A stretch of 61,795 bases of DNA, counting the filler, from Bacteroidales bacterium (lineage in GTDB: Bacteria; Bacteroidota; Bacteroidia; Bacteroidales; CAIWKO01), in NCBI GenBank assembly GCA_035389045.1. It is 2 parts of 2 records of this genome, joined end to end, with 100 filler letters (N's around TTAATTAATTAA, not from the genome) between each part and the next. Parts side by side here need not be neighbours in the genome. Positions count along the whole stretch, not along the records: positions 31,179 to 61,795 come from DAOORA010000057.1; 1 more part is not named here. One strand, given 5' to 3'. A program made the translations under genes and the position numbers. Of the stretch, positions 29,246 to 55,890 are shown one piece after another. Position 1 is the stretch's first letter. Each line of letters starts with the position of its first letter. Below the pieces are notes generated by a model, which ran no database searches, was not told where the DNA came from, and saw nothing but the letters and a program-made list of their open reading frames with translations.

Positions 29246-29360
29246 GCGTATGAATTTGGGTGTAAATTTAATCAAATATGATTGGCTGGCTCTTGATTAT
29301 AAAGATTTAACAGATTTGCTGAAAAAACTTTTTTTATGAACACGCAATCAGGCTGAATAT

Positions 29361-31343: not shown

Positions 31344-31379
31344 AATAAAAAAAGACCTGACATCAGGTCTTTTTTTATT
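31344..31379. terminator. Bidirectional Rho-independent terminator
   Basis: Perfect inverted repeat aataaaaaaagacctga-ca-tcaggtctttttttatt between convergent genes. Confidence 0.93.
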
Positions 31380-31383
31380 CCTC

Positions 31384-34300
31384 TCAGTTATCTGGCAAAA
31401 TAATCATCGAATGTGTAGCTGTGAAATCTCTCGTTAACCCTTCAACGACGATCTTGTAATAATAAGTACCGCTGCTAAATTTGGAACTGTCAAAGCGAAG
31501 ATGGTATTTTCCTGCTTTTTGCCGGCCCGACACCAACGTTTTAACTTCCTGACCTAAAACATTATAGGCTTTAAGAATAACATTCCCATCTTCAGCTAAT
31601 ACATAGCCAATTTCAGTTTCTCCGTTATAGGGATTGGGATAATTCTGGCTTAATTCAAAATCATGTTCTGTTGAAATCCGGATTTCAGGATAACTCAAAT
31701 AGACATTGTCCATGATTTCCGCTGTTATTTCTGCAAATTCACTCTGTGCATCCAACATTAATGTGATGGTGTCATTTTCTGATGCTATTTCGCTGACTTT
31801 TAAATGGAGCACACACAACGCCTCATTGTTGTCAAATATTGCCGGCGAAATGCTGTCCCAGGCAACGATGATCTTGCCTTTTTCAGCCCTGAATAAAAAC
31901 CCGGGGAGTACTGAAGTGATGGCTTCAACCTCAACAATGTGTTCCGGGTAATTTATTAGTAATGTAACTGCTGCAGGGCTAATGGCGTTTTCACATAAAA
32001 CCGGAAGATCAATATTTCTACTTCTGCCTGAACTGATCTCTCCTTTTTTGATCAGACTGACACCTGATGATTTGATAAATACAGGCTGATAAGATCCGTT
32101 CACATCTCCTGCGCACAAAGTTTTTATATCATGAATGATATTGCTATCGGTGACATAAAGCGTATCTTTCAGAAATACAATATCATTTATCTGAAAATTA
32201 TCAATCTGCCCTACGACACGTCTCCTGATCAATAAAGCATCCGTGCTTGAAATAGTATTGGAATGATTAACATCAGCGGCGGAATCCTGCAGTCTGTTCA
32301 GGTCAGTCAGGCCAATAACTGCCCTCCGAACCAATAAAGCATCCGTTGAATTTACGCCACCCCATGGAAAATCGGCATAAGCATTAATTAAATAGGTATT
32401 CTGAGGTTTATTGCCGAAATCGTAAGTTCCGTTAATACCGGTAAATACAGAATCTTTTTGGGCACCTTCAATATCACGTAAATAAACCAATGCATTACTT
32501 ATAGGAGTATTCAGAATGTTCTGATAAGTAACAGCACCGGATATTGCCCGGGGATTACCCAGAAAAATTGTTCCTTCAGTTATATTCTTCATTGGCTCAG
32601 TATTACCCACATGATCCCTGGCAATCGAAAAAAAACGGTATTCAGAATTCTCTATGCCGATAATATGTGCCACATTTCCTAAATTATATTCACCATATAA
32701 ATAATATGGTCCGCCATCTTTCGAATAATAGAGAAGATACTTCTGAATCCCGCACCCGCCAACATCATCCTGTCCGGTAAATGACAGATCGGCAGTACCA
32801 GGCGAGGTCAAAACCAAAGTATCAACTGTAGTCGAAGGTGGTAAGGCATCAATAACATTAAACCATTGATTGGTATTTATAGGTTCATTAACGTCAAAAA
32901 TAATTTCTGCTTTAACCAGTACTGAATCACCCGTATTATCAACTGCTTTAGGCTTCACTGAAAAAGTGACATACCCCTCACCTGAGTGTATGCTTGTGTC
33001 ATTAACAGGCAAAAAACCTGTTTGGGGATCATTAGGAGGAAGGCCGGTTGCGGGGTCAACAGACTGGAATATCCAGAATGCTTCCTGATTAACCATATCC
33101 AGTCCCGCGATTATGTCTACATATACATTTAGCGATTCAGTCACATCCAATCGCATGGAATAATAAGGGGTTCCCGGCGGCACTGAAAAGATAAAATCTC
33201 CAAATCCGAAATTGCCTATCTGTAAAGAATTCATGTCAATCTTGTCATTCAGCGGTACTGTGATTTTAACCTCTTGTGCGGGCGCCGTAGCGAAATCCGG
33301 GTCATTTTCATAATATACAGTGTAGGACAACTGGTCGTTGACCGATACCCATTGTTCTTCGGCATATCCTGCTGGTCCGGCAATGGCATTGGGGTCCTGT
33401 GAACATTCCACGGGGATAAATAATACAGAAACACATGAACTGGCGCCACATCCATTGGCATCCGTAACAGAACAGCAATAAGACCCTGATCCTGATACGG
33501 AAAGAGAACCTCCCTGCCAGCTATAACTATAGGGAGGTGTCCCTCCTGAAGCCATTGCATATAAATCTGTTTCAGGGGGGGCCGGGTCATCGCCACAATA
33601 ATAAACAGATGCATTTCCGCCGGCGACTGAATTTGATAATTCCGGAGGACTGTTTATAGTGATGCTTGTTGTTCCGTGACAGCCGCTGGAGTCGGTTACG
33701 GTCACTGAATATGATCCGGATGACAGGCCAAAAGCAGTGCTTCCGGAACTGCCATTTGACCACCCATAGGTATATGGCTCACTTCCGCCAGATGCGGAAA
33801 CGGTGGCCTTACCGTTGCTTTGGCCGTGACAGGAAGGCGGAGATGACGAGATGATTGACACCGGGAAGGCAATATTATTGGTTACTATTGCTACCGTGTT
33901 AGTTCCGTTGCAGCCATTTGAATCCGTGACCGTGACGTTGTATTCACCAGCATCCAGATTCGTTAGGGTGGAATCGGTTTCACTGTTTGACCAGGAATAG
34001 GTAAAGGGCATAGTACCATCACCGGGCGTGACTGTTGCGGATCCGTCGGACGAATTGTCGCAACTCTCGTCTGTCTTGGTAATAGTAGTAGGTAAAGTAT
34101 TCATTGACAGTTCGATGTCCACATTGATTAAATCAATGCAGTTTACAGAATTTGTTATGATAACATTGTACTGCCCCTCGGCCAAACCATGTATACTGTC
34201 GAGCGTATCGCTGGTATTCCAGAGATAAGAAAAATTTGCCGTATCCCCCCTGATGATTTCCACCCAGGCTGAGCCGTTAGAATCACCTGCACAAGTCACG

Positions 34301-36078
34301 TCTTTATGTTTAACAACCGTTGAGTCATAATCGTCGCCTACACCCACAGCATACCAGGCATTAATAACCCTTTTGGCATTATCCGAGCAGTTGCCGAAAA
34401 GATCAGTTGCTGAAATAAGGGAGTATTTTCGTGCATCTTTATAATTGGATGCAGGGGGAAGATACACGGTCAGTGTACGGTAGGCAATACTTGCCGCATC
34501 GTCGATGCCTATGCCGGTAACATTGTAATCGTTTCCCAGGTCATTAGTACCTGCTCCTCCTTGTGAAAGCAGGTAAAACCAATACGCGAGTACACCGCAA
34601 TTAAAATGCACACCACCGTAATCGCCTGCCAAATAATACCAGTTAGTCCCGTGATACGTATCAGGAAGACCATATGTTTCGGGCGAAGACATGGAACGGA
34701 AGGGAGCAGCCATATCTTCCCCGATAGTCCAATTGGCTGAGGCAGGTTTTGCATAAAACTCGATACTTGTACCAAAAATATCTGAAAATCCCTCATTGAG
34801 AGCCCCGGATTCATCCTGATAAGTGAGGTTTGCTGTTTTCTCGGTAAGGCCGTGTGTTATTTCATGCCCAACAATATCAACAGCAGTATAGGGCCCGTTG
34901 GCAGCATCACCATCACCATAAGTCATGCAGGCTCCGTTCCAGAATGCATTTAGATTATCCGTTTGTGAAGAGTGAATTAACGGAAGATTGGCATGAACAT
35001 AATTTATGAGCTTAAATCCGCTGCCATCAATACTGTTGCGTCCAAATTTACCGAAAAAATAATCATACGATCTTTCGGTAGCCCAGTGGGCATCAGTTGC
35101 CACTTCATCCTGCTCCGCATTTACGTTGTCCCAGTAATTATTGGTGTCGATAAAATCAACCGCGGTCCCGTAATTTCCGGTCATCTTCATATTGTAAGTT
35201 TCAATGCCATTACCTCTAAGTGTTTCACGCAAACGGTAATAGGTCAGGGGTACTCCGGTGGAAGTATCCGTCATCTTTTCGGCATGAATCGGTTGAATAC
35301 CACTGTACTTTGTAACCGCTGTGCCTGGATCATTGATTGTGTGTATCCTGCTCAGTTCCAAAAAAATTTCCCCATTTTGTGCATCGACAAAAATATACGA
35401 TCTGCTCATTGGTTTATGAGCATAAATATCAAACCTGTACGCCAGCTTGTATGATGATGAATTATTATCCGCCAGAAAAATCAGCTTCCCAGACGGGAAA
35501 TAGGTAGCACCAGGGTCGCCTGTGAATTTCTTCAGAAATATTTCTTCACCGGGGATTTCCCATTTATATTCGATGGCGTTAACATAAGAAACAGCGCTTG
35601 CAAGTGCCTGTGATTCGGTCATGGTCTTACTGTTGGAAACATTCACCGAGGAAATAATTTTCCCGTTAAAAGAAAACACTTTGCTGTCTTTGGTATGCAC
35701 AATAATATCTTTTTCAAAAATTTCTATTCCCTGAAAGGTTTGGCCATACCGGTAATGCACCTCCCCCAAATTATCTCTTTCAGTGCTTTTCAAGACAAAT
35801 CCCATTTCGGGTGACAAATTCAGTGATTTGGACAACCACTGCTCCCATTCACCGAAACTGATCTCATTGCCGGCTTTTAGTTTTATATATTCAGGCAGGT
35901 CCCCATTGGCTGCATAATCAATGCGAGAAGCTCCTGTAATCTTTTGTTCTGCTTTGTGTGTATTGTAGACCTGGGAAAAACTTTCATGCCCACAAAAAAG
36001 AAACAAGAATAATATGATAATAAAACGATTTATCATAGCCAGCTTTGTTGAAATATTCTTTTTGATTTTGGTTTTCAT
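31384..36078 (-). CDS. M4 (thermolysin-family) metallopeptidase with SprB repeats, DPN-type Ig domain, dockerin, cohesin-like domain and T9SS type A CTD
   Basis: FTP/PepSY propeptide; NAFWNG, HEITH, GALNEGFSD and GGVHFNCG motifs; SprB-like C-x-G-x-SNG repeats; SQDPNAIAGP; AADVNHSNTISSTDALL; LSQNYPNPY..SSGTYYY CTD. Confidence 0.92.
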   Translation of the reverse strand: MKTKIKKNISTKLAMINRFIIILFLFLFCGHESFSQVYNTHKAEQKITGASRIDYAANGDLPEYIKLKAGNEISFGEWEQWLSKSLNLSPEMGFVLKSTERDNLGEVHYRYGQTFQGIEIFEKDIIVHTKDSKVFSFNGKIISSVNVSNSKTMTESQALASAVSYVNAIEYKWEIPGEEIFLKKFTGDPGATYFPSGKLIFLADNNSSSYKLAYRFDIYAHKPMSRSYIFVDAQNGEIFLELSRIHTINDPGTAVTKYSGIQPIHAEKMTDTSTGVPLTYYRLRETLRGNGIETYNMKMTGNYGTAVDFIDTNNYWDNVNAEQDEVATDAHWATERSYDYFFGKFGRNSIDGSGFKLINYVHANLPLIHSSQTDNLNAFWNGACMTYGDGDAANGPYTAVDIVGHEITHGLTEKTANLTYQDESGALNEGFSDIFGTSIEFYAKPASANWTIGEDMAAPFRSMSSPETYGLPDTYHGTNWYYLAGDYGGVHFNCGVLAYWFYLLSQGGAGTNDLGNDYNVTGIGIDDAASIAYRTLTVYLPPASNYKDARKYSLISATDLFGNCSDNAKRVINAWYAVGVGDDYDSTVVKHKDVTCAGDSNGSAWVEIIRGDTANFSYLWNTSDTLDSIHGLAEGQYNVIITNSVNCIDLINVDIELSMNTLPTTITKTDESCDNSSDGSATVTPGDGTMPFTYSWSNSETDSTLTNLDAGEYNVTVTDSNGCNGTNTVAIVTNNIAFPVSIISSSPPSCHGQSNGKATVSASGGSEPYTYGWSNGSSGSTAFGLSSGSYSVTVTDSSGCHGTTSITINSPPELSNSVAGGNASVYYCGDDPAPPETDLYAMASGGTPPYSYSWQGGSLSVSGSGSYCCSVTDANGCGASSCVSVLFIPVECSQDPNAIAGPAGYAEEQWVSVNDQLSYTVYYENDPDFATAPAQEVKITVPLNDKIDMNSLQIGNFGFGDFIFSVPPGTPYYSMRLDVTESLNVYVDIIAGLDMVNQEAFWIFQSVDPATGLPPNDPQTGFLPVNDTSIHSGEGYVTFSVKPKAVDNTGDSVLVKAEIIFDVNEPINTNQWFNVIDALPPSTTVDTLVLTSPGTADLSFTGQDDVGGCGIQKYLLYYSKDGGPYYLYGEYNLGNVAHIIGIENSEYRFFSIARDHVGNTEPMKNITEGTIFLGNPRAISGAVTYQNILNTPISNALVYLRDIEGAQKDSVFTGINGTYDFGNKPQNTYLINAYADFPWGGVNSTDALLVRRAVIGLTDLNRLQDSAADVNHSNTISSTDALLIRRRVVGQIDNFQINDIVFLKDTLYVTDSNIIHDIKTLCAGDVNGSYQPVFIKSSGVSLIKKGEISSGRSRNIDLPVLCENAISPAAVTLLINYPEHIVEVEAITSVLPGFLFRAEKGKIIVAWDSISPAIFDNNEALCVLHLKVSEIASENDTITLMLDAQSEFAEITAEIMDNVYLSYPEIRISTEHDFELSQNYPNPYNGETEIGYVLAEDGNVILKAYNVLGQEVKTLVSGRQKAGKYHLRFDSSKFSSGTYYYKIVVEGLTRDFTATHSMIILPDN

Positions 36079-36105
36079 ATTTATTTCTTTTTAGGAGAAT
36101 TTGAA

Positions 36106-39100
36106 TTATTTATATTGGACAAGGTACCCCAAGCCGGCAATGGTTTTAGCATAAATCGTAACGGACCCGTTTACCCCTGGCCTTAATAGTCCGGAAGGTC
36201 CGTTATCTTCCTTAAGCGGCACAAGCAGGACATGATGCATATTGACCAGCTGGTCAACACTTAATGCAATAGGAGAAGCGGTAAGGCTTCTGACGGTCAC
36301 TTCGGGGTTATAAATATTGGTATTGCCAAGGTTTGCAAACTCTATGGTAAAGCTTGTCACCCTGTTCGGGCGTGATGAAGGAGGCGCAATGATATTTACA
36401 CCAAGTTGGGTTGCTGTACCGGCAACAACCTCGAATCCTTGCTGAAGTGAGGTCGTGTCCCCATTGGATTTTTCAATTATAAGATCAAAAACAGCCGGTT
36501 GGATGTCCGTGAGGTCAAAGGTCGCAAACACTTTAGAGTAATCAACATACATAAGGTCATTGGCTGCAATTACGGTTGATCCGTTTTCAAGTCGTACTTC
36601 CATATCGGGATCAAACTTTGATCCGGTGATCTCCAGGGTGACAGTTCCGGTATTTCCGCCGGTAACAGGATTCAGCGAAAGAATCTGAAATACAAGGATC
36701 TCGGCCTTTACTTCGATATGCTGCTGGTTCCCCGTCAGGGTACTTCCGTAAAGTAGCATATAATAGTTTCCGCTGAAAAGCGAGGACACGATAATATCCT
36801 GATTCCCCGCGTAAGGATTTCCGCTTGAAAAATCATGGATGATCCGTGTCGGCATATCATCATGCTTCAGGTACATTTCGTTGGCACCGGAAACAGAATC
36901 AGCCTTCAATGTGGTAAGCATCGTTTCATTATTCTGAGAATAATCAATGGGAATACGGAAATACAAGTTCTCAAGATCATTCAGTGTGTCCGACAAAGTA
37001 ACACCAAGAGGTAATTCACGTATATCGGCAAATATCATTTCGCTTGCCGCTGTACTATTATTATTTTCATCAGTTTCATTAATTCCGTTGAGTACATCCG
37101 TCCTGACAAAGACATAGTACAACCCATAATGAAGGTCATTGGCTTTTGCTGTTACACTTCTTAAGATCTCTTCGTCAGTGCCCAGACTCACACCCGACTG
37201 GAATGATCCGAACAACACATCTCCAATATCCCAAACCGGATCATCGGAAAAATACACCATGTCTTTTACAATCCCGTTAGCCGGGTTCTGTCCGGTATTT
37301 CTAAGTGTCCATTGAATTGTCGTTGTTTTTCCAACGACAACCGAGTCCGGATGAGTTATTGTTGAAACAACCAGGTCGGCCGGAGGTGGTTGAGATACAA
37401 CCACAAAAGAATAGTCCGAATTATTGGTTTCGGATGATTCATATAGGGCATCTGCGGCATCAGCCATGATCAGCATGACGTAATTCCCTGACAGATTATT
37501 GGGCAGGGTGATTTGCAGTGAATCAGTATATGTTTGAGATGCACCAATCGCCTCCATTCTCGTCTTTGATCCGATCAGCAGGTCACCGGAATTAATGACA
37601 AGATCAGAAGATAAATAAATCTTATCGGTCCACGAGTTATTCTGGATAACTCCCGGTCCAAGGTTTTGAGCCGTCCAGGTTATAGTAAACGGTATGCCGG
37701 TAACGGCCTGCAAGGGCACTGTAAACAAGGTCACTTTAAGGTCCGGCGGAGGGGTAAGTGAAATATGAGTGGTTATCATTGGGCCGTATATAGATCTTGC
37801 CCTACTGTTGTTTGACAGATTGGCATCGCTGTTTACCCGCTGATAATCGGCAACAACCAGCAAATAATAATCTCCGCTTACCCCGTTGGGTATAACAAAT
37901 GACTGACTGGCGCTGTAACTTTCTTCATAGCCCAACTGCCCGTAATGATAACGTTTGCCGAGGTATAAGTCTGTATTCTCATTCCAAAGGCTGTCGCCGG
38001 ATAAATAAACCGCATCGTACCATGAGGAAAGAGTACCTGCAGGGGCAATATTTTTCACGGACCAGTATACACTAATTAATTGCCCTGAATATGCCGAATC
38101 AGAATTAATAACACTCAAAACAGTGATATCAGCGGGAGGAGGCGGATTAATGAAAAGGGGGTCACTTTTAGAAACGTTGTTATATTCCGTGGTGTGTTCA
38201 AAAACAGTATCCTCTGCATCGGCAAAAACATAAATATAGAAAATCCCGCTGCCAATTCCGCCAGGCAGATTGACAGAAGTGTTGATTTCATAGGTTGAAT
38301 CGACAGCCAGTGAAAACGACTGCACAAAAGAGCGCAGGAATACCGACGACCCCGGATCCCAGTCAGAAACCGGTGAAATATATGCTTTGTCGATCCATGT
38401 TTTATCTATGATGCTTTTTGTACCTGTATTTTTTACGGTAATAATCATGGGAATTTGCTGGCCAGCCATCGCAGAATCTGTTATTTGAATGTTGGTGACC
38501 TGAAGATCTGGCCAGGCATTTATTTCAAGGTAAATTATAGAATCGGCAACATTATTGTTTTTATTATATATTTCATCAATATTGTCATTGAAGTCGGTGA
38601 AAACATGAATATAATAATCACCTTGTATCCCTTCCGGGATAAAGACCATTATTTGACTTGTGATACTATCGCCGGGATGCAAAGTACCTGTAAAACCCTT
38701 ATCGGCCAATAACGTATTCGCACCCTGATAATAGGACGAATAATACGATAAGAAAACCCTGTCATGCCAGGTTTTATTAAGAACTGATGAGGTCCCATTA
38801 TTTTTCGTCACCCATGTTATGCTGACAGAATCCCCTGTATTTGCGGAAGAAGGAATCTGCAGATGCCGCACTATCATATCCGGCCTCAGAATCTGTATGG
38901 TGCCGGCGCTATGGCCTATGTTGTTCGTTTCAGAATAATTCTCATATATCTGGTTATAACCATCCACATATACAAAAACATAATACGTGCCGGGTTTAAT
39001 GGAATCCGGTAAACTGACATTCACCTGTCTGCTGGCGGTTTCACCGGAGCCCATATCTGCACTATAGTTCAGTACCGTAATCTGAAAAACCGAATCGGGA

Positions 39101-41916: not shown

Positions 41917-41948
41917 GATTTTTAATTTTAAAACCAGTATTAATTTTC

Positions 41949-44900: not shown

Positions 44901-47900
44901 TCCTCTTTGTCCGCTGATGGAATTTGTCTTCATCCAAAATTCAATGCATCCTTTGGGTGGCATCGGGCCAAAATCCCCCAACACAACTTCCGAATTACTG
45001 CCATTAAAGAACAGTGCTTTATCAGCTCCCCGGGTAACATCGCTGTTCCAGTTCAATGTATCGAAACCGGAATTTTTTACCTGCAGTAAACTGTACAATG
45101 TATCATCACAGATACTTGCACTCATGGGAATACTGTCGGGCGTGACGGCCAGCTCGGGACCTGCAGTAATGGTTCCATTGACATACAGCCGCCTGATTTC
45201 ACTATTGTTCAAAACGCTCAAAGTATCGCTGTGGAAACCCAGTGTTAAGGAATAAAAACCGACTGTGATCAGCGCTGAATCATAGGGCATTACAAATGAT
45301 GGGAATGCAGGCGTAAATGCCTGATCTGAATGGTTTATTGCCGTTATTTTCAATGAATCACAACCTGTATTATATATCATAAAGGTATCGGTAGTGGTTG
45401 CTCCTGCATAGATCGTTGGAAAATTTCTGATGCTGTCTTCTATCAGGATTTGTGGCTGTCCGGAAATAGAAAAACACAAAGGCACCAATAGTATTGGTGA
45501 AGCAGGGACATTGGATTCTATGATCAGATTCTGGAAATAATTTCCCGAACTCAGATCACCGTCAAAAAAAGTAATATCAATCTGAGAAGTATCCCCGGGA
45601 ATGGTCATATTTGAGGTATCGCTCAATATCGCCCAGCTTCCGGTTGTCCCATTAATGTTTACTTCATCAATAGCCCAGTTATCATTACCTGATCCACTAT
45701 GAGCTATCTGACGCCATCTGAATAAAGTTTGTACATTCTGAGCAGCAGCAGGAATCGGTATTTGAACAGCAGTAAAACCCGGATAGTTTTCAGAATCAAA
45801 AATCTGAATAACGACCCAGGTGGAACCATTATCAACAGAATACTCCAATACAATATCTTCGCCGGCATCTGCATTGTCACAGGGACTTGTCCCCGTAGCG
45901 ATCATGAGGTGGAAAGAAATAGTTCCGCCGCCTACCGTATTCAATGATTTGGTTATAATCTCCCTTGTTCCGGTCCCGTCAAAATACAATGCACCGGTTC
46001 CTGCAGCTGTTCCGCACCATGCGGCAGAAGTTCCATTCAGAACCTCACTCCAGTCGAAATAATCAATCCCGGCATCAAAATTATCAGACAGTGTCTCTGA
46101 AAAATAATACGAACATAAAAGGGTGTCATTCCCTGTATTGATAACATTTATGGTAGTCACAATGGTGTCGTGACAATTATTTGTACTCACTATGATACTA
46201 TCAGGTGTTAATGCTATCCCGGGAGTTACAATTACGGTCGCACCGGCAAATAAACGCCTGATTCCGCTGTTACTCTGGATCGTTATGGTATCGTGGTATA
46301 TACCCTGTATCAACGAATAAAAATCCGCTATAATCAGGGCAGTATCTCTCGGCATCACAAAGTCGGGATAAATAATCGTAAATGCCGAATCGGTATGGGT
46401 AAGCGATGTAATTTTCAAGGTATCACAACCGGTATTGAATATTTGAAAAGTGTCTGTTGCCGCCTCTCCGGCCATAACCGAAGGGAGATCCCCGATACTG
46501 TCATAGATCATGATTTGCGGATACCCGTTCAAAACAAGCCATGTAGGAATAAATGCATACGGATGTAACGGGTCATTGGTCGTTATTCCTATTGCTGAAA
46601 TATGGGTCCCGCTGTTAAGTATACTGCTCACAAATGTCACCTGCACGGCGCTTGTATCTCCGTCAGCGATCTGCCCGCCGGCAGGCTGAAGGTCAATACC
46701 AGGATCCAATATCCCTGCTTCTGAAGCCACCCTTGTCACATTAATCAAAATACCGGTTTTATCATTATTAAAACTGTAAACAGTATCCCCCGACGGCTCG
46801 TTAAATTCCCAGGCTCCAATCAACCCTGGCGGAGGAGCAAACATACCCAGCCGGAACGAATTGGTTATTTCTTCACCGGAACGATATTCGCTCCACATGC
46901 GGAATCCATCAACCTCACCATTATAATGATAAGTCGTAGAAGAATAATATCCGATACCGAGCCTCACATCAGAAAACGCAGAAGGAAAATAAATATTAGC
47001 ACTTCCGTTTTTCGTAACATTTCCGTCAAAATAGGCCCATACTTTGTTTTGTGAAATATCCCATGTGATTGCAACATGATGCCATTGGCCATAATCAATG
47101 TCATTACTGATCACATAAGAGTTATAATCACCATTATCATCTCCCATGCGTATGTACAAATAATTATAATTCTGATAAATAATCACTCCTCTCCAGGTAC
47201 TGTTAATCCCGGATGAAGAAAAAATTATCTTATTTGCGGCGTTGACATTTGTTTTCATCCAGAATTCGACACAGCCCTGCTCAGGCATAGGCCCGAGGTC
47301 CCCAAAATGAACCTCGCTGTTACTGCCGTTGAATGATAAAGCATTGCCGGCGCCGTGGCTGAAATATGCACTCCAGTTCATGGTATCATTACCCGTATTT
47401 ATGACCTGGAAATTTGAAATGATGGTATCATTACAGCTACCTGTAACCGCAGATAAACTGTCAGGAACCAATAGCAGCTGTGCTGTTGGCAGAATTGTCC
47501 CGCATACATACAAATGCCTTGTTCCGTTATTATTCAGGATAGTGAGTGTGTCACAATGAAGTCCCTGTACTAATGAATAAAACCCGACCGTGATCAGCGC
47601 AGAATCTTTGGGCAGAATGACAGAAGGGTAAACAGGGACAAATGCGGGATCTCCATTATTTACCGCTGATATTTTCAAAGAATCACACCCTGTATTATAA
47701 ATCATAAAAGTCTTTATTGCTGAATCTCCAGCCTCAACAGAAGGGAAAACAGCGACGCTATCCCTGATAAGTATACACGGCAATCCTGTCAGGATAACCT
47801 GCGTGGGAACCACAACAAGATGCTGCAAAGGGTCATCAGTGCTAATCCCTATTACAGAATGATGAGTCCCATTGTTTAAAACACCTGTGACAAATGTCAC

Positions 47901-50900
47901 TACAACACTTGCAGTATCTCCGACAGCCACAGTACCATCTACAGGATCGGCATCAATACCCGGGTTGCTGATTAGCGCTCCTGAACTGACCCGGGTAATA
48001 TTTAATAAAACACCTTTAATACCGGAATTAAAACTATATGCAGTATCACCCGAGGGTTCATTGAATTCCCACAAGCCTGTCAGGCTGGCCGGAGGATCAA
48101 AAATACCTTCATGGTAAAAATCATTGATATCAGCCTCTGAGCGGATTTCGCTCCACAGCCGGAATCCGTCAATCTCTCCGTTAAAACGATAGGTTGAGGT
48201 GGTGTTGTAACATACGCCAAGCCTGACATCCGAAAATGCCAGCGGCCATTCAGGGTTATAGGTGTCATCAACTGCAACATTCCCGTCAAAATATGCCCAG
48301 AGTTTGTTTTGTGGTTTATCCCAGGTAACTGCCACATGGTGCCAGTTGCCAAAATCAACATTATCTGTTATGGTATGAGTGACATAATAATTCCCGGCAT
48401 CATCGCCCACCCTCAAATACAGTATAGTTCCGCTCTGATAAATATTAATTCCTTTATAGGTACCGTTAAGCCCTGATGAACAAAAGACCCTTTTTGTTCC
48501 GGAGTTCACATTGGTTTTCATCCAGAATTCAATACAGCCTTTATCCGGCATAAGCCCGAGGTCACCGAACCGCACCTCACTTGTGCTTCCATTGAATGAC
48601 ACAGATTTTCCGGCACCATCGCTGCAATAAGCGCTCCAGCTCATAGCAGCATTGCCTGTATTTATTATCTGAAGGGCAGTAGAAAGAGTATCCTCGCAAA
48701 TACCTGTGCTCACCGACAGGCTGTCGGGAACAAGCAAAAGGTGCGGCGTCTGCAAAATAGTACCGCTTACATACAGTTGCCGGGGTTCACTGTTATTCAT
48801 AATTATAAGGGTATCGCTATGATAGCCTTGTATCTGTGAAGAAAAAATGACGGTGATTATTCCTGAATCTTTCGGTAGTACAAAAGTTGGAAAACCGGGT
48901 GTGAATGCCGGATCATCATTATTGACCGCTGTTATTTTCAGTGAATCGCAACCGGAATTGAATATTTTAAAAGTGTCTGATACCACTGCTCCGGCCATTA
49001 TTGAAGGGAAGATCTCTGTAGTATCATTAAAAACAATCTGAGGCGCACCGTCCAAAACCAGCTGTAAAGGAATAAAATCAAGCAGATGCAGAGGATCATT
49101 TGTCGTTATTCCGATCAATAAATGGTTAGTGCCGCTGGAATAACCAGCGGTGTTCAGCGTCACGGCAACATGAGCTGTGTCATTAGGCGCCAGCAGACCA
49201 CTGACGGGTAAAGCATCAATACCTGCATCCCTGATACCTGCACCTGATGTTACCCTGCCTGTGTAAAATAAAATACCTTTAATATTTGAATTTAAACTGT
49301 ATACCGTGTCACCGGAAGGTTCATTAAATTCCCATAAACCTGTGAGGCTTACCGGAATATCAAATATTCCTTCACTGTATAAATTCATAATATCGGCAGC
49401 AGAACGACTTTCACTCCATAACCTGAACTCGTCGATCTCTCCGCTAAAATGATTGGCTGTTGTAGCGGCATAACCGACACCCAGCCTCGCATCGGAAAAA
49501 GCGGAAACCCACCGGGGATTATTACTACCGTTTTCATAAACATTTCCGTCAAAATATGTCCAGACTTTGTTTTGAGTTTTATCCCATGTAACCGCCACGT
49601 GATGCCACGTGCCAAACTGGACATTATCCGTGACTGTAAAAAAATAAGAATTTCCGGCATCATCACCCATGCGCAGGTACAGGCCGGCTCCATTCTGAAA
49701 AATATTCACGCCCTTCCAGTTGTTGAACAGACCTGATGATGAAAATACTTTTCTGGAGCCTGTGTTAACATTAGTTTTCATCCAGAATTCCACACTCCCT
49801 TTTTCCGGCATAAGCCCGAGATCCCCGAAATGAACCTCGCTGTTGCTTCCGTTGAATGACAAGGCTTTTCCGGCGCCATCCGTATAATATGCTTCCCATG
49901 TTAACGTATCATTTCCGGCATTAATTATTGTAAAGTCATTAGAAAGCGTATCATCACAAATATTTGTGTTGTTAGATAAACTGCCGGGAACCAAAGTTAA
50001 TTTTGGTGTTGGCAAAATAACGCCGCTCACATACAGGTGTTTTGATTCACTATTATTGAGTATGGTGAGTGTATCTGTATGTAAGCCCTGTGTCAATGAA
50101 GAAAAGCTGACTGTAATCAGTCCCGAATCTCCCGGTATCACAAATGTGGAAAAATCTGCTGAAAATGATGGATCTGTATTATTAACAGCTGTTATCTTCA
50201 AAGAATCACATCCTGTATTAAATATTTTAAACGTATCTGTGATCAGATCACCGGCCAGTATAGAAGGGAAAGCCCTGATGCTATCCGTAAAGAAAACCTG
50301 CGATGTTCCCGATATAACCATCTGTACCGGTACAAAAACATTATGATGTAAAGGGTCATTAGTAGTTAAACCGACCACTGCGTTATGTATTCCGCTGTTA
50401 AAGCCTCCGGTAAAGCAGTTTACCTGAACCACAGCAGTATCTCCTCCGGCTAATATGCCGCTGGCAGGATTGGCATCGGTCTGCGGATCTGTAATCCCTG
50501 CACCCGAACTAACTCTGGTGATATTATATAATACACCTTTTATACCGGAATTTAAACTATAAACCGTATCACCTGACGGTTCATTAAATTCCCACCATCC
50601 TGCCAGGCCTGACAGTGGCACCGATAATCCTTCATGATACAAATCCATTATCTCGGAGGCAGAGCGGTTTTCCTTCCACATACGGAATCCGTCAACCTCC
50701 CCGTTAAAATAATAAGATGCTGATGCACTGTAACCGATGCCAAGTCTAACATCCGAAAACGCAGAAGGCCAATGCGAATTATAATCCCCGTTCACATTCA
50801 CAATTCCGTTAAAATAGGCCCATACTTTATTTTGCGCAACATCCCAGGTGACAGCCACATGATGCCAATGACCATAATCAACGTTATTGGTAATGGTATA

Positions 50901-53900
50901 TGAACCTGAAGCCCCGTTGTCATCTCCTATGCCTAAAAACAGATAACTTCCTGACTGGTAAATGTTTACACCTTTCCAGTTACCGTTAAGTCCCGAAGTT
51001 GAAAACACCCGTCTGGAACCTGAGCCCACATTAGTTTTCATCCAGAATTCGACACAACCTTTTTGGGGCATTTGCCCCATATCTCCGAACCTGACCTCAC
51101 TGGTACTTCCATTGAATGACATTGCTGTCCCTGCATCTTCCCCGCAATATACGTTCCACCTCATCGTATCATTGCCGCTGTTTATCAGCTGAAACGAACC
51201 ATTGACAGTATCTTCACAAACAGCCGTACTCATTGAAATACTGTCGGGGTTCAATGTCAGGTAAGCTGCCGGTAATATGATCCCGCTGACATATAGTTTT
51301 ATCGTTTCACTATTATTCTGGATGATGAGCGTATCATTGTGAATCCCCTGTGCCAAAGAAAAGAATTTTACAACGATCAGGGCTGAATCCCTTCCGGCTA
51401 TACAGGAAGGGTAAACAGGATTAAACGCAGGATCAGTATTATTCACAGCGGTTATTTTCAGGGTATCGCATCCAATATTATAGATCATAAATGATTCTTC
51501 GGCCGATTGTCCGGCCTGTATGGATGGAAAGATTTTAACGCTGTCTTTCACCAGAATCTGCGGAAGTCCCGTGACAATAAAATACAACGGAACCACCATG
51601 ATTGACGTTAAAGGATCATTAGATTCAATTATTAAATTTTGCGTATGAATTCCGGCAGTTAATTGTCCTACGGTAAATATTATTTCAACTGATGATGTAT
51701 CTCCTGCAGCAATGGTGTCCCTTGTCTGGCTTAAAGAAGCCCACTTATTTTCGACGCCGTTAATTTTAAGTTCATCAATGACAGCACCCTCAAATTCCGC
51801 TGACCCATAGGACTCAAACATAAAGCGGAATTTGATATAATCGCCGTTTTCGACATAACTGCTCAGTGGAATTTTCACCGGGTTCCATTCCCCGGTGCCG
51901 GTCAAATCGGCAACTGAATACCACAAACCTCCGTTGACACTAATCTGGGGGGATAAATAATCATTCCAGGTATCCAGATTTAATTTCACCATAAATTGTA
52001 TGCCGAAACTATCTTTATCAGCAATATACAGTGAATCTTTTAATTGAATATATTTTTTCCAGTAGTTTTCATAATTCCCTGAAGGCCCTTCGGTCAATCC
52101 GTATGCCCCGGTGTAACCTTGCGCGACACTCCAATTATCGTCTGAGCTCCAATTATTCAGGCCGTTCTCAAAATTTTCGTACCATTCATGCCTTATCGAA
52201 TAATACAAAGGTTGGAATCCCACATTGACAAGTGACAACCATGATGTCTGTGTTGCAAAACTATCACAGGATGTTATCATTCCGAAAACTGTATCGGGAA
52301 TGGCAGATATCAAAGCAGGAGGCGATAAGGCAAAAAAACCGCTTGACAGGGTGTCGTTTGTATGATCCATATCGCCGGGCAAACCGGTATAAACAGTAAT
52401 GGTATTGTTTAGCACCTCCGGCATCACAGGAGGCAGAATGACATTTGTTTTTTGTTGAGGTAACAACAGCCCGTTCCAGGTATAAGATACCGGCGGTTTA
52501 TCATTTAAAACGTAAGTGATCGGGATCTGATACAAAGTATCATAACCATTGTTTTTTAAGTGAACAATCACACTCTCTGCGGCAGACTGGTATCCGATAT
52601 CATCCGGATTAACAATACTCAACAGCTTTACATCTTTCTGCAATGCGGGTAAAACATTAAAAGTATAATCCTCTGTCTCGCCATAATATAACTGATTGCA
52701 GGGATCGGCAGGCGCTTCATATCCATAGTCTTCTCCCCTTACGCGCATGGTATGAGCACCGGGCAGAGCATAGCCGGGAACAGAGAATTGTGCTGTAATA
52801 GTCAATTCCTCATAAGGATTGTCTTCAGAAATCACTTTTTCCGGATTTTCATAGATTCCGTTATCGTTAAAATCAATCCACACAGCATATGCCAGGGCAT
52901 AACCATAGGATGTAAAAGTCATGAAAATCTGCTCATACTGAAAACCCGATAAAGTATCGGAACTGCTGAAATCAGCATACGACCAGGAAGAACAACCGGT
53001 GCTGTTGTTTATATTGGTTTCTCCACCGCTGGAAGTGATATTGCTGATCCATTCATAATCACAGGCCGCATCTGAAATAGCCGGAACACAATAACAGGAA
53101 ACAAGGTCATTCATTTGTATATGAACAGGATTGGAAAAACCGGTACTCGAATCGCAGGAACAATTAACCGTACAACGATAGTAAGACGGAGCCGGCTGCG
53201 AGGTCATCAGATTATCCGTTGTATCACTTGCAAGATCTGTCCAGTTGACACCATCCTGCGATGATTGCCATTGGTAGGTAATTCCAAATGCATCAACATG
53301 GTACTGCAAGCTTACCGTAAAAGTGTCTGCCGGACAAACAACACTTAAATCAGTAAATGTATTTCCGGGATTGGCAGGCCCTGTACATGGCACAGCGGCA
53401 AGTACTGTAAAAGAATAATCTTCCGTTTCGCCGTAATGCAGCTGATCACAGGGATCGGCAGGCGCTCCGTTACCATAAAAATCACCACGGACACGCATCC
53501 TGTACGTTCCGGGAGAAACGGAAAGGGGGATCATGAAACTATCCGTTACAATTAAATCCCCACCTGGATTGTTGTGTGCAATGACACGCTCCGAAATGTC
53601 GAAAACATAGTCATTGTTAAGGTCTATCCATACAGAAAATGCCATGGCATAACCAGCAGATTCAAATGTTAAAGCGGTATACGACAACTGTGTATTTGAT
53701 AAAGTGTCGGTGCAGCTGAAATCGAAATAGGAAGAACCGGCACAGCCAGAATCGTGATTTAAATCAGATATCCCGCCACTTGACGTTATTTTGGATATCC
53801 ACATCTGGCAAGCATTATCAAACGAAGGAATTGGAGAACAATAACCAGAATTATCCTGATAAACAGATAACAATGAGTAAAAATTACAATTAATAAAGGT

Positions 53901-54062
53901 CTGTAACCAAATTCCTGGTGGATTATTTACAGGAACTGCAGCCTGGTCAGGCATTAAATTTTTCAGACCGGTTGGTAATACTCCATCTGCTTTTATTCCT
54001 GACGAATAAAGGAGAAGTAAAAAATAAATAACAGAAAATAATAGTGTTTTTTGGGGTTTCAT
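41949..54062 (-). CDS. 4037-aa T9SS-secreted adhesin/lectin-like protein: 2 GEVED, 5 LamG, choice-of-anchor-D-like Ig domains, a Reelin-like domain, PKD-like domain, dockerin, cohesin-like domain and type A CTD
   Basis: VWIDxN..MRVR..GETEDY twice; SFNG..EFWMK..WHHVAVTWD..FNGEVDxxR five times; AADVNNSHTILSTDALL; NVPNPF..LSHGVYFY CTD. Confidence 0.9.
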   Translation of the reverse strand: MKPQKTLLFSVIYFLLLLYSSGIKADGVLPTGLKNLMPDQAAVPVNNPPGIWLQTFINCNFYSLLSVYQDNSGYCSPIPSFDNACQMWISKITSSGGISDLNHDSGCAGSSYFDFSCTDTLSNTQLSYTALTFESAGYAMAFSVWIDLNNDYVFDISERVIAHNNPGGDLIVTDSFMIPLSVSPGTYRMRVRGDFYGNGAPADPCDQLHYGETEDYSFTVLAAVPCTGPANPGNTFTDLSVVCPADTFTVSLQYHVDAFGITYQWQSSQDGVNWTDLASDTTDNLMTSQPAPSYYRCTVNCSCDSSTGFSNPVHIQMNDLVSCYCVPAISDAACDYEWISNITSSGGETNINNSTGCSSWSYADFSSSDTLSGFQYEQIFMTFTSYGYALAYAVWIDFNDNGIYENPEKVISEDNPYEELTITAQFSVPGYALPGAHTMRVRGEDYGYEAPADPCNQLYYGETEDYTFNVLPALQKDVKLLSIVNPDDIGYQSAAESVIVHLKNNGYDTLYQIPITYVLNDKPPVSYTWNGLLLPQQKTNVILPPVMPEVLNNTITVYTGLPGDMDHTNDTLSSGFFALSPPALISAIPDTVFGMITSCDSFATQTSWLSLVNVGFQPLYYSIRHEWYENFENGLNNWSSDDNWSVAQGYTGAYGLTEGPSGNYENYWKKYIQLKDSLYIADKDSFGIQFMVKLNLDTWNDYLSPQISVNGGLWYSVADLTGTGEWNPVKIPLSSYVENGDYIKFRFMFESYGSAEFEGAVIDELKINGVENKWASLSQTRDTIAAGDTSSVEIIFTVGQLTAGIHTQNLIIESNDPLTSIMVVPLYFIVTGLPQILVKDSVKIFPSIQAGQSAEESFMIYNIGCDTLKITAVNNTDPAFNPVYPSCIAGRDSALIVVKFFSLAQGIHNDTLIIQNNSETIKLYVSGIILPAAYLTLNPDSISMSTAVCEDTVNGSFQLINSGNDTMRWNVYCGEDAGTAMSFNGSTSEVRFGDMGQMPQKGCVEFWMKTNVGSGSRRVFSTSGLNGNWKGVNIYQSGSYLFLGIGDDNGASGSYTITNNVDYGHWHHVAVTWDVAQNKVWAYFNGIVNVNGDYNSHWPSAFSDVRLGIGYSASASYYFNGEVDGFRMWKENRSASEIMDLYHEGLSVPLSGLAGWWEFNEPSGDTVYSLNSGIKGVLYNITRVSSGAGITDPQTDANPASGILAGGDTAVVQVNCFTGGFNSGIHNAVVGLTTNDPLHHNVFVPVQMVISGTSQVFFTDSIRAFPSILAGDLITDTFKIFNTGCDSLKITAVNNTDPSFSADFSTFVIPGDSGLITVSFSSLTQGLHTDTLTILNNSESKHLYVSGVILPTPKLTLVPGSLSNNTNICDDTLSNDFTIINAGNDTLTWEAYYTDGAGKALSFNGSNSEVHFGDLGLMPEKGSVEFWMKTNVNTGSRKVFSSSGLFNNWKGVNIFQNGAGLYLRMGDDAGNSYFFTVTDNVQFGTWHHVAVTWDKTQNKVWTYFDGNVYENGSNNPRWVSAFSDARLGVGYAATTANHFSGEIDEFRLWSESRSAADIMNLYSEGIFDIPVSLTGLWEFNEPSGDTVYSLNSNIKGILFYTGRVTSGAGIRDAGIDALPVSGLLAPNDTAHVAVTLNTAGYSSGTNHLLIGITTNDPLHLLDFIPLQLVLDGAPQIVFNDTTEIFPSIMAGAVVSDTFKIFNSGCDSLKITAVNNDDPAFTPGFPTFVLPKDSGIITVIFSSQIQGYHSDTLIIMNNSEPRQLYVSGTILQTPHLLLVPDSLSVSTGICEDTLSTALQIINTGNAAMSWSAYCSDGAGKSVSFNGSTSEVRFGDLGLMPDKGCIEFWMKTNVNSGTKRVFCSSGLNGTYKGINIYQSGTILYLRVGDDAGNYYVTHTITDNVDFGNWHHVAVTWDKPQNKLWAYFDGNVAVDDTYNPEWPLAFSDVRLGVCYNTTSTYRFNGEIDGFRLWSEIRSEADINDFYHEGIFDPPASLTGLWEFNEPSGDTAYSFNSGIKGVLLNITRVSSGALISNPGIDADPVDGTVAVGDTASVVVTFVTGVLNNGTHHSVIGISTDDPLQHLVVVPTQVILTGLPCILIRDSVAVFPSVEAGDSAIKTFMIYNTGCDSLKISAVNNGDPAFVPVYPSVILPKDSALITVGFYSLVQGLHCDTLTILNNNGTRHLYVCGTILPTAQLLLVPDSLSAVTGSCNDTIISNFQVINTGNDTMNWSAYFSHGAGNALSFNGSNSEVHFGDLGPMPEQGCVEFWMKTNVNAANKIIFSSSGINSTWRGVIIYQNYNYLYIRMGDDNGDYNSYVISNDIDYGQWHHVAITWDISQNKVWAYFDGNVTKNGSANIYFPSAFSDVRLGIGYYSSTTYHYNGEVDGFRMWSEYRSGEEITNSFRLGMFAPPPGLIGAWEFNEPSGDTVYSFNNDKTGILINVTRVASEAGILDPGIDLQPAGGQIADGDTSAVQVTFVSSILNSGTHISAIGITTNDPLHPYAFIPTWLVLNGYPQIMIYDSIGDLPSVMAGEAATDTFQIFNTGCDTLKITSLTHTDSAFTIIYPDFVMPRDTALIIADFYSLIQGIYHDTITIQSNSGIRRLFAGATVIVTPGIALTPDSIIVSTNNCHDTIVTTINVINTGNDTLLCSYYFSETLSDNFDAGIDYFDWSEVLNGTSAAWCGTAAGTGALYFDGTGTREIITKSLNTVGGGTISFHLMIATGTSPCDNADAGEDIVLEYSVDNGSTWVVIQIFDSENYPGFTAVQIPIPAAAQNVQTLFRWRQIAHSGSGNDNWAIDEVNINGTTGSWAILSDTSNMTIPGDTSQIDITFFDGDLSSGNYFQNLIIESNVPASPILLVPLCFSISGQPQILIEDSIRNFPTIYAGATTTDTFMIYNTGCDSLKITAINHSDQAFTPAFPSFVMPYDSALITVGFYSLTLGFHSDTLSVLNNSEIRRLYVNGTITAGPELAVTPDSIPMSASICDDTLYSLLQVKNSGFDTLNWNSDVTRGADKALFFNGSNSEVVLGDFGPMPPKGCIEFWMKTNSISGQRGIVSTSGLNSNWKGINIYQNNNYIYLRFGNDFGNYYATYAIAENADAGHWHHVAVTWDITQNKVWTYFDGNMSTNGSYNSYWPSAITDVRFGVGYNATSRFYGEMDEVRMWSEYRTAIEIANLYQEPYIATLPELLGIWEFNEPAGGTAFSVDHCKNGILFNVSRVVSGADINRIGINVTPESGSLTIGDSINVQISFITSGLNNGSHYGGITVLSNDPFHSAAVIPVHLVLSGASQIQLPETDLFMDVIIAGASVTDSVPVVSYGCDTLIITGITNNNTAFTFDQTSFTIVPGHTAYLKVTFEPVDVGVYEDTVQIISDGGNARFFVHAVALTPPSASVSISCASFDPCMDSMIICNAVPLNGGSNPLFKWYVNDILMQEENQINDGDIFSYTPADNDSVLCVMTSNMPYVINNPDTSNTITITLPPQAIPDSAGTISGWAGVCQGKNNVTYTIPVIANAVSYIWSLPSGATGTSSTNSITVNYSDTAVSGNITVKGHNLCQDGAESFLAVTVNPLPAVNAGTDTVIGQGSAIVLNGSISGGTLPYMILWTPSGSLSDNDILNPLASPVSSTTYTLTVSDAHSCSASDKVHIHVTYLTTGSVVYGNSLLTPMQNEWVYFEDAAHILIDSVLTSGAGNYYFDSITEGTYYLYSKPSYMHGGISATDALLIKRHIVNLAALSGINLNAADVNNSHTILSTDALLILRRTIGLIPSFAAGDWTSEMKVLTVNSNQQNVLIKVLCMGDVNGSYNIYNMKKAEGSPVLTCKPVSANLIAGETFNLPIKVDQNILPGAVTLNIRFPEDIIDITGVLLNGSEIEYYVYNGILSVAAYDVNGMQLENNVLLTLKCKIKPETKKTDICISLTEQCEIADREGYVIKGLLLEVAQLNVTENFIGFKLEDNVPNPFSETTMVRFYIPEEASADVSVINMQGVEIKTISFHKLPAGWNEIQIDGKELSHGVYFYRLHAAGAQQTFEETRRMMIVR
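46300..51560 (-). repeat. Intragenic tandem repeat of about 1260 bp (420 aa, Ig + split-Ig/LamG unit), four consecutive copies, with a fifth near 44.2-45.5 kb
   Basis: Equivalent SFNG codons at about 51114, 49854, 48594 and 47331 (spacing 1260, 1260, 1263) and about 45006. Confidence 0.9.
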
Positions 54063-54564
54063 AGAGTATAATTAAATAAATAATGATGTTTCAGGCCGAA
54101 TTAAGCTCTGATTTGGAAAAATGTTAATTTATATTATATATTTTAACGAATTTAACAATAATCATTTCAACTCCACTGAAATTAACTTTTTTTAACAATT
54201 TATTCGAGGGGCTTTTACAGAAGAACACTAAGGGAACAATTGTGAGAGTAAGACTATATCATAATTTTATTTATAAATCGGCATTAAACCTGCAATATAT
54301 TCTTTTGTTGCATACCCAAGAATTCTATCTTACGGAAAACATGAACTTTAACAAACCTGTTTTTGCACTAGATCCAATGGTTTGCAGGCAAATTGTTTTT
54401 TTATGTTCGATCGCAGGTTTTATGGCTGGTTTTCGAAATCAATTTCCATCTTCGTGCCAGACCAACAAATTGATTCTAATAACTGAAAATAAACTCCATG
54501 TAACAATTGATAAATAATAATATTTGATAACAAAAATATAAACATTTAAATATTCTAATACTTT

Positions 54565-54595
54565 TTTGCCATCTCATTAGTTTTTAATATCTTTG
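54565..54595 (+). promoter_or_regulatory. Complete Bacteroidota sigma-A-type promoter (-33 TTTG, 19-nt spacer, -7 TATCTTTG)
   Basis: tttg at 54565-54568 and tatctttg at 54588-54595, upstream of the large plus-strand gene. Confidence 0.75.
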
Positions 54596-54779
54596 TAAAA
54601 AAATAACGACAAATTTATTTTTCCTTAATGCATACTTATAAATTTCGCTTATCAAATTTAAATAAAAAGACTCATTCTTTTATTATCCACAATTCCCTAT
54701 TTCTTTGCATATATATATTCGTTATAATTACATATTAATGCCACTCTACTATAAATCAGAAATAAAGCAAAACATTTAT

Positions 54780-55790: not shown

Positions 55791-55890
55791 NNNNNNNNNN
55801 NNNNNNNNNNNNNNNNNNNNNNNNNNNNNNNNNNNNNNNNNNNNNNNNNNNNNNNNNNNNNNNNNNNNNNNNNNNNNNNNNNNNNNNNNN
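55791..55890. other. Assembly gap (100 N) within a repeat array
   Basis: Run of N flanked by copies of the same coding repeat. Confidence 1.

Follow-up and report, generated by a model that had tools for sequence, protein, structure and literature searches.

To our knowledge, assembly through cohesins and dockerins is understood almost only in Gram-positive cellulosomes, and type IX secretion system (T9SS) cargo is thought to be anchored singly, through its C-terminal domain (CTD). Two complexes described in silico come close to the locus presented here. In Candidatus Stygibacter (Cloacimonadota), dockerin-bearing peptidases and other enzymes are predicted to dock on a scaffoldin of tandem cohesins with a T9SS-type CTD at its end; the dockerin cargo includes GH18 and GH57, the scaffoldin carries carbohydrate-binding modules (CBMs), and the accessible part of that paper describes no dockerin-cohesin-CTD tail, CARDB cassette or synteny analysis (PMC8542988). 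In the green sulfur epibiont of Chlorochromatium, from another phylum, the gene of a giant surface protein bearing an N-terminal cohesin lies beside that of a protein with a C-terminal dockerin (Cag_2037/Cag_2038), and the pair was modelled as tethering the giant to the cell (bioRxiv 10.64898/2026.03.19.712371). Going by the accessible part of that preprint, the cohesin carrier is an RTX protein that leaves through the type I secretion system, and no T9SS CTD, tail cohesin or protease takes part. Here, we analyse a stretch of 61,795 nucleotides from a Bacteroidales bacterium (assembly GCA_035389045.1), the whole of which we call the window, where three adjacent genes encode a giant adhesin-like protein (P0001), a stalk protein of CARDB repeats (P0002) and an M4 protease (P0003). 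Judged by synteny, these genes are one copy of a conserved Bacteroidota surface-protein cassette, and cohesin-dockerin contacts in trans would hold its three products together, a reading to which we give a probability of roughly 0.5. An earlier note on this DNA had proposed such docking; as far as the two sources above are accessible, in-silico precedents exist in Cloacimonadota and Chlorobiota. The literature searched, with subscription journals mostly outside it, contained no functional study of dockerin-cohesin-CTD tails or of the cassette, in agreement with the note, which knew of no functional description of such an operon.

P0001 and P0003 end in the same module, as the earlier note had seen: the two share a 385-aa tail (residues 3653-4037 of P0001 and 1179-1564 of P0003; 31% identity over 386 columns, E 2e-55), within which the cohesin-like domains are 23% identical (E 4e-8). 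P0002 indeed begins with a homologue of these domains (28% identity to that of P0001, E 9e-11). When the three regions were compared with the Pfam hidden Markov models, the proposed names fared unevenly: both tail dockerins exceed the PF00404 cut-off (22.9), and the window's own cohesins all stay under that of PF00963 (24.1; 14.7 bits for P0001, 14.7 for P0002 and no match for P0003). Profile A3, built from 30 tails, matches the solved dockerins 4uyq_B (3.5e-9), 1daq_A (2.8e-5) and 1ohz_B (3.7e-5), and profiles A1 and A3 match the cohesin 2xdh_A at E 1.1e-6 and 6.5e-8. The cohesin of P0002 has 728 relatives at E<=1e-3, many of them in proteins with 4-11 tandem copies; these relatives reach PF00963 at E 1e-57 to 1e-70, and some of the proteins have a terminal T9SS CTD. 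Two orthologues of P0002 themselves pass the PF00963 cut-off (P0022, 30.2 bits; P0045, 26.5 bits).

The AlphaFold2 (AF2) model of the P0003 dockerin-linker-cohesin (246 aa, 30-sequence alignment) reached a predicted local distance difference test score (pLDDT) of 91.9 and a predicted template modelling score (pTM) of 0.88. The Foldseek matches to the Protein Data Bank (PDB) listed for it are all cohesins but one, of types I to III (best E 1.8e-8); they include 1ohz_A, 1aoh_A and 2ccl_A, with template modelling scores of 0.62-0.76 by target length for most, and the model accords with the nine-stranded beta-sandwich of ~140 residues seen in solved cohesins. For the dockerin, the model shows a pair of helices, in which a TDAL motif recurs, and a short helix in the middle. 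In the tail alignment the second calcium loop is canonical (DVNxSxxIxxxD) and keeps its ligands, at the positions that we take, from the dockerin literature, to be the calcium-binding ones. Past the dockerin comes a conserved and well-ordered linker, SFxxGDW ... LCxGDVNGSY, and a third DVNGS motif comes after it. Because of the profile matches, the PF00963-scoring relatives and the modelled cohesin fold, we regard the window modules as members of the cohesin and dockerin families, with a dockerin of non-standard form. Elsewhere in the genome, a tail on contig C51 (29047-29649; locus L092) has the genome's top cohesin (PF00963 55.9 bits) immediately after its dockerin, with 304 aa from dockerin to end. 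By sequence, this tail connects the divergent tail cohesins to the canonical cohesin family.

The genome of the window (G000; 4.46 Mb in 135 contigs) carries the cassette three times, on contigs C57 (the window copy), C7 and C50. The C7 copy encodes a 1325-aa LamG protein with the tail, a 1942-aa cohesin-CARDB protein and a 1613-aa M4-SprB-DUF7619 protein with the tail. The C50 copy comprises a 4660-aa giant, a 1949-aa cohesin-CARDB protein, four genes with no Pfam match at E<=1e-3, a 1010-aa SprB-DUF7619 protein with the tail and a 344-aa cohesin-CTD protein. Searching species genomes for the P0002 family gave 75 loci, mostly metagenome-assembled genomes (MAGs) of Bacteroidales, Lentimicrobiaceae, Saprospiraceae and Chitinophagales, with some from other phyla. 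Cassette synteny is present in at least 18 other Bacteroidota MAG loci, and L009 again shows the window's three-gene form, in which M4 is fused in front; together with the C7 copy, these loci show the gene arrangement to be conserved elsewhere. Domain mapping identified a seven-gene form in 12 loci, in the order giant with tail, cohesin-CARDB protein, ~400-aa protein, ~450-aa TSP_3-repeat protein, SprB/DUF7619 protein with tail, cohesin-CTD protein and cohesin-PKD_6 (x10) protein. This form always includes the ~450-aa protein, which is made up of calcium-binding thrombospondin type 3 repeats (e.g. L006:17002-18351). The DUF7619 protein bears an M4 head in L009, L034, L044, L046, L059 and L078; in a cultured strain of Paraflavitalea sp. 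(L036:15286-19887), the DUF7619 protein that follows the CARDB protein has an M23 peptidase and MopE metal-binding motifs, not M4. Across the loci compared, the peptidase head is thus recurrent but variable.

Cohesin and dockerin occur together in these loci. The CARDB protein has an N-terminal cohesin in 19 of the 75 loci, and a dockerin is then found in the upstream gene in 18/18 cases in view and on the downstream DUF7619 protein in 13/14. Where the CARDB protein has a complete N-terminus and no cohesin (37 loci), the corresponding counts are 0/20 upstream and 1/23 on the downstream DUF7619 protein. Moreover, the tail tree groups by position in the cassette and not by genome, with 17/18 giant-type tails in one clade and 9/12 DUF7619-type tails in another. 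The three G000 copies cluster within each tail type, which indicates that duplication involved the cassette as a whole. Two further gene pairs of this genome resemble the cassette in their logic (C39:24607-34637 and C44:1789-13714; L081/L086 and L088/L099): in each, directly behind a beta-helix/Kelch protein whose tail is of intermediate type (dockerin to end, 327 or 328 aa) comes a protein that bears 3 or 4 P0002-type cohesins.

The link between P0002 and P0003 can also be seen independently of the cohesin and the dockerin, since CARDB and DUF7619 proteins are fused elsewhere. A single open reading frame (ORF) holds the CARDB array, the C-terminal region of P0002 and the DUF7619 region in 11 loci, which come from Ignavibacteria, Chlorobi, Calditrichia, Planctomycetota, cyanobacteria and Cytophagales. 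The DUF7619 region of P0003 matches these fused ORFs at E 1e-66 to 6e-79 (phmmer), and Pfam finds DUF7619 and a terminal T9SS CTD on two of them, with PPC as well in L007. All of the CARDB-protein ORFs listed end at the same point (43/43). Because of the fusions, the DUF7619 match and this common end point, P0002 and P0003 resemble an adhesin that has been split in two.

The tail extends far beyond the cassette and is not peculiar to the operon, a point on which the earlier note's interpretation needs revising. Local profile searches found the full tail on 47 ORFs of G000 (6 of cassette type, 41 of main type), two more being truncated by contig ends, and ~49 further ORFs match the CTD part alone. 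All 41 Pfam-level dockerins of the genome sit in tails, 304-365 aa from the ORF end in 40 of them, the remaining one being truncated by a contig end. The six cassette proteins share a distance of 324 aa; 31 ORFs have ~358-365 aa, and three others 327, 328 and 304 aa. Among 34 aligned main-class tails, 31 are mutually 56-66% identical despite unrelated heads, and main-class and cassette tails are homologous over the entire dockerin-linker-cohesin (hhalign probability 99.9, E 5e-37). The heads of the 35 dockerin ORFs outside the cassette comprise M14, M43 and C25 peptidases, two metallophosphoesterases, beta-helix/Kelch proteins, adhesin-like proteins with immunoglobulin (Ig), PKD, FG-GAP and propeller domains, and three multi-cohesin proteins. 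No glycoside hydrolase family was found in these heads (0/35 at E<=1e-5), and Pfam gave no catalytic family of carbohydrate-active enzymes (CAZymes) in P0001, P0002 or P0003, results that support a system oriented towards proteins and adhesins, in line with the note's protein-directed view.

PF00963 has 20 matches over cut-off in G000, of which 19 are free cohesins and the twentieth is the C51 tail cohesin; scaffoldin-like proteins carry up to 6 copies, and the free cohesins also include three P2-type cohesins and two on C50. Since no dockerin lies outside the tails at Pfam level, the free cohesins, if they bind any dockerin, must bind tail dockerins. Congeners have 10 to at least 48 tail matches each, and other cassette-bearing genomes have 4-82 dockerins; in G044, the cassette accounts for 2/4 of them. 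We propose that the cassette represents one specialised offshoot of a cohesin-dockerin network that extends over T9SS cargo throughout the genome.

The earlier note had all three proteins exported by the T9SS. This stands for P0001 and P0003, whose CTDs score over cut-off, and falls short for P0002, in which no CTD family was matched at E<=0.01 in Pfam or NCBIfam. The genome encodes parts of the corresponding machinery (PorU x2, PorV x1, all over cut-offs); tandem full-length PorU sortase genes (1341 and 1148 bits) followed by PorV lie at C13:24939-33094. In the arrangement that we propose, P0001 and P0003 are type-A T9SS cargo, each ending in a prealbumin-like domain, dockerin, structured linker, cohesin and CTD. 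After export of such cargo, the PorU sortase removes the CTD and the protein is fixed to the outer membrane; P0001 and P0003, having lost their CTDs, would then display a cohesin and a dockerin at the cell surface. P0002 is a Sec-exported CARDB stalk with a free N-terminal cohesin. Most likely, the cassette dockerins would bind the cassette cohesins in trans, foremost this free cohesin, the stalk, itself without CTD, would be fastened to the T9SS-anchored proteins next to it, and the adhesin, the stalk and the protease together would work as one protein-directed surface complex. As P0002 and P0003 together correspond to the single CARDB-PPC-DUF7619-CTD adhesin of other phyla, the cohesin-dockerin pair may re-join the halves of the split adhesin. 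For a single pairing, the P0002 cohesin with the P0003 dockerin-cohesin tail and two calcium ions, complex prediction gave 0.31, 0.28 and 0.32 against a mark of 0.32, and 0.00 for three controls, an outcome that is neutral with regard to binding.

Several observations weigh against this arrangement. The first calcium loop of the dockerin is degenerate in the aligned tails, with only the last Asp left. Since the tail is modelled as a single compact body (pTM 0.88), the dockerin may already be partly bound in cis, and both dockerin carriers have an anchor of their own, which makes a tethering role less obvious. P0002 has no CTD that would take it across the outer membrane. CARDB and DUF7619 proteins also occur as separate proteins in many Bacteroidota that have neither cohesin nor dockerin, so the split does not require these modules. 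In addition, the co-occurrence counts come from related genomes, are not independent and may reflect few evolutionary events, and no close orthologue of the P0002 cohesin was found in the same-genus genomes searched (0/17; best 41% identity, in short ORFs). With respect to transcription, contigs at least 99% identical to the window occur on all three genes in three activated-sludge metatranscriptome runs (14, 19 and 12 pieces); no piece bridging the gene junctions is among those listed, with 59 further pieces beyond the listing, and RNA runs may contain DNA.

The compactness of the tail is also the starting point for a different explanation, in which dockerin and cohesin of one tail bind each other in cis and make up a rigid pedestal, or else an extended module for secretion and anchoring, that stands between the cargo and its CTD; docking among the three proteins would then not run through it, and the cohesin of P0002 would bind something else or nothing. 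The confident 246-aa model with its ordered, conserved linker fits this idea, as do the fixed distance from dockerin to C-terminus (40/41 ORFs), the closeness of 31/34 main-class tails under unrelated heads and the extension's presence on roughly every second ORF with a match to the tail profile (47 full against ~49 with the CTD part alone). Binding in cis would, however, leave 19 free Pfam-level cohesins, some in scaffoldin-like proteins, in a genome with no dockerin outside tails; nor does it sit well with a CARDB cohesin that is gained and lost along with the dockerins of its neighbours, or with two cassette tail types that stay distinct between genomes. We consider it unlikely but not far-fetched. 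Tails could instead bind tails, the dockerin of one cargo protein on the tail cohesin of another, in chains or a lattice that coats the cell and to which the operon merely adds members. Each tail does hold one dockerin and one cohesin, 47 ORFs of diverse heads bear it, and the same tail ends scaffoldin-like multi-cohesin proteins; yet such a coat would explain neither the cassette-specific tail subfamilies nor the strict pairing with the CARDB cohesin, nor genomes with only 4-7 dockerins, and the monomer model is compact rather than open, which makes this version distinctly improbable. It is tempting to combine these elements more broadly: in this lineage, the tripartite tails on about half of the detected type-A T9SS cargo would, in combination with multi-cohesin proteins anchored by CTDs, connect the secreted proteins into a surface network rich in proteases and adhesins, while a private cassette pair re-joins the split adhesin and the CTD-less CARDB stalk is captured, perhaps co-exported, by its T9SS partners. 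As a whole, this larger picture is speculative and doubtful.

Two other explanations concern what the modules are. A classical polysaccharide-degrading cellulosome would have the cohesins, the dockerins and the multi-cohesin scaffoldin-like proteins that are all present here, and some dockerin proteins bear beta-helix, CBM-like or CBM_2-like parts; the catalytic heads, however, are peptidases (M4, M14, M43, C25) and phosphoesterases, glycoside hydrolase families are lacking in all three operon proteins and in the 35 other heads (E<=1e-5), and the anchor is a T9SS CTD, not SLH or sortase, so that a cellulosome of this kind is highly improbable. That the modules are just an Ig sandwich and an EF-hand pair with a chance resemblance to cohesin and dockerin, the outcome that the earlier note had named as refuting its reading, could be argued from the sub-threshold Pfam scores of the three window cohesins (14.7, 14.7, none) and from the one degenerate calcium loop. 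The dockerins over the PF00404 cut-off, the profile matches to solved dockerins and cohesins, the cohesins that make up all but one of the Foldseek matches listed, the transitive links to proteins at PF00963 E 1e-57 to 1e-70 and the C51 tail of the same genome, with a 55.9-bit cohesin right after its dockerin, make it barely credible. The docking of the three cassette proteins in trans is thus the reading that we retain, at the probability given above.

The features of the cassette are collected in Table 1. The three minus-strand ORFs are separated by 32 nt (P0001/P0002) and 27 nt (P0002/P0003) and closed by a terminator with a 16-bp hairpin that none of 200 shuffles matched in a folding test; the co-directional giant genes, their spacing and the strong terminator had all been described correctly in the earlier note. 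This terminator was overlooked by a consensus scan, its hairpin having a 4-nt loop within a long A/U-extended stem. Read-through from P0002 into P0003 was considered and rejected, as two TAA codons stand between the genes, which share a frame. P0001 runs from a signal peptide through two GEVED domains, five Laminin_G_3 domains alternating with HYDIN/DUF1573 Ig domains, Reelin subrepeat B and PKD_6 to the tail (Pfam). In P0003, the M4 domain looks intact from its sequence: PF01447 scores 109 bits and PF02868 155 bits, with profile positions 1-165/165 covered, and the translation has HEITH, NEGFSD and GGVHFN motifs, which we take to be the catalytic ones, and thus the HExxH and the downstream Glu of Peptidase M4. 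The DUF7619 region had no PDB sequence match at E<=1, and an Atlas search with it returned mostly DUF7619 clusters. The prealbumin-like domain stays under the PF13620 cut-off in P0003, and its counterparts in the C50 paralogue (34.3 bits) and in L009 (35.3 bits) pass it. The C-terminal region of P0002 is modelled as three beta-sandwich domains (PPC-like, IPT/Ig-like and CARDB-like), for which Foldseek finds strings of Ig/FN3 domains and the PPC domain 5sv5. A hidden CTD at this end was rejected, as the model shows three generic beta-sandwiches and no CTD is among the Foldseek matches listed.

Table 1. Coordinates of the cassette and its parts in the window, with the basis of each assignment
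Feature	Position	Strand	Basis
Intrinsic terminator, hairpin and T run, operon end just past the P0003 stop	31344..31379	-	dG -19.4 kcal/mol, z -7.9
P0003, 1564-aa thermolysin-type protease fused to SprB repeats, DUF7619 and tail	31384..36078	-	ORF call, Pfam, NCBIfam
P0003 T9SS type A CTD, aa 1480-1548	31435..31641	-	TIGR04183 24.6 bits (cut-off 23); PF18962 25.4, under cut-off 27
P0003 tail cohesin, aa 1340-1473	31660..32061	-	AF2 pLDDT 91.9, pTM 0.88; Foldseek cohesins
P0003 dockerin, aa 1240-1288	32215..32361	-	PF00404 27.4 bits (whole protein), 34.9 (isolated segment); profile A3 matches solved dockerins
P0003 prealbumin-like (CarboxypepD_reg-like) domain, immediately N-terminal to the dockerin, X-module position	32374..32544	-	PF13620 26.8 bits, under cut-off 32.3
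P0003 DUF7619 region, aa 888-1164, best conserved part	32587..33417	-	PF24595; phmmer against fused ORFs, E 1e-66 to 6e-79
P0003 SprB repeats, aa ~590-880	33439..34311	-	PF13573 E 9.2e-24, 4 stretches
P0003 FTP propeptide, M4 catalytic and helical domains, aa 94-580	34339..35799	-	PF07504, PF01447, PF02868 above cut-offs
P0002, 1936-aa CARDB-repeat stalk with Sec signal peptide and N-terminal cohesin, without CTD	36106..41916	-	ORF call, Pfam, NCBIfam
P0002 conserved C-terminal region, aa 1625-1936	36109..37044	-	AF2 pLDDT 93.8; Foldseek; conserved end
P0002 CARDB array, aa ~350-1625	37042..40869	-	PF07705 E 1.9e-65, 9 stretches
P0002 N-terminal cohesin, aa 40-175	41392..41799	-	728 relatives at E<=1e-3; own PF00963 score 14.7 bits
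P0001, 4037-aa giant adhesin-like T9SS cargo	41949..54062	-	ORF call, Pfam
P0001 tail, aa 3653-4037: prealbumin-like domain, dockerin, linker, cohesin, CTD	41952..43106	-	31% identity to P0003 tail, E 2e-55
P0001 T9SS type A CTD, aa 3956-4025	41988..42197	-	PF18962 27.9 bits (cut-off 27); TIGR04183 26.9 (cut-off 23)
P0001 tail cohesin, aa ~3812-3945	42228..42629	-	PF00963 14.7 bits, under cut-off; profiles A1/A3 match 2xdh_A
P0001 dockerin, aa 3713-3759	42786..42926	-	PF00404 27.0 bits (whole protein), 34.1 (isolated segment); cut-off 22.9
AT-rich spacer, 642 nt, between operon and divergent gene; presumed promoter region	54063..54704	.	Position and composition

The window is a concatenation, in which positions 1-31078 are contig C56, 31079-31178 are an artificial linker (N/TTAATTAATTAA/N) and the three-gene operon lies on contig C57; the genes to the left of 31079 (gyrA, clpB, parAB and others) are therefore not its neighbours. 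Scaffold gaps of 100 N stand inside both contigs (25471-25570, and 55791-55890 on C57), and ORFs called over such gaps, e.g. 55606-61794, are partly artefactual. Beside the operon lies a large divergent gene (54705-56003 and 55606-61794, plus strand) with CHU_C-associated Ig_7 and Big_2 domains, which is split by the gap and continues beyond the window edge. The unrelated contig C56 encodes further secreted proteins on its minus strand (25933-27366, 27368-29275 and 23764-24885): a C10 (streptopain-like) peptidase that combines a propeptide resembling Spi inhibitors with a T9SS CTD, an M1-like peptidase, and a CTD protein of 373 aa.

If confirmed, the larger network or piggy-back picture would be the first case of T9SS cargo assembled, or exported on a partner's back, through cohesin and dockerin. 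The cassette also raises the question of the surface route taken by a 1936-aa protein without CTD. In addition, its host Bacteroidota are abundant in sludge and digesters, and the tails may yield new orthogonal cohesin-dockerin pairs with which proteins could be displayed on the surface of diderm cells.

Compared with known systems, the clostridial type I cohesin-dockerin pair (the C. thermocellum Xyn10B dockerin with the CipA cohesin, 1ohz) uses the same two module families, and G000 likewise has multi-cohesin proteins. Unlike in the clostridial cellulosome, no CAZyme cargo was found here, the cell is diderm and the anchor a T9SS CTD, and the dockerin has a degenerate first calcium loop and stands side by side with a cohesin in one tail. 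Thus, as far as domain content tells, the system works like a cellulosome in its modules and lacks the dockerin-borne CAZymes that define one. The Archaeoglobus fulgidus cohesin 2xdh, the best sequence-profile match and fifth by fold, is also non-cellulosomal; it is archaeal and comes without a T9SS, unlike the system of the window, and the protein to which it belongs carries both a cohesin and a dockerin. In outcome, the proposed complex would be akin to the gingipain-adhesin complexes of Porphyromonas gingivalis, where T9SS-exported proteases and adhesin domains are joined non-covalently on the outer membrane; those complexes arise by polyprotein processing and use Cleaved_Adhesin domains, with no cohesin or dockerin. 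Next to these systems, a tail borne by dozens of T9SS proteins and a cassette whose partners strictly co-occur point to a second, protein-directed use of cohesin and dockerin, on the outer membrane of Bacteroidota.

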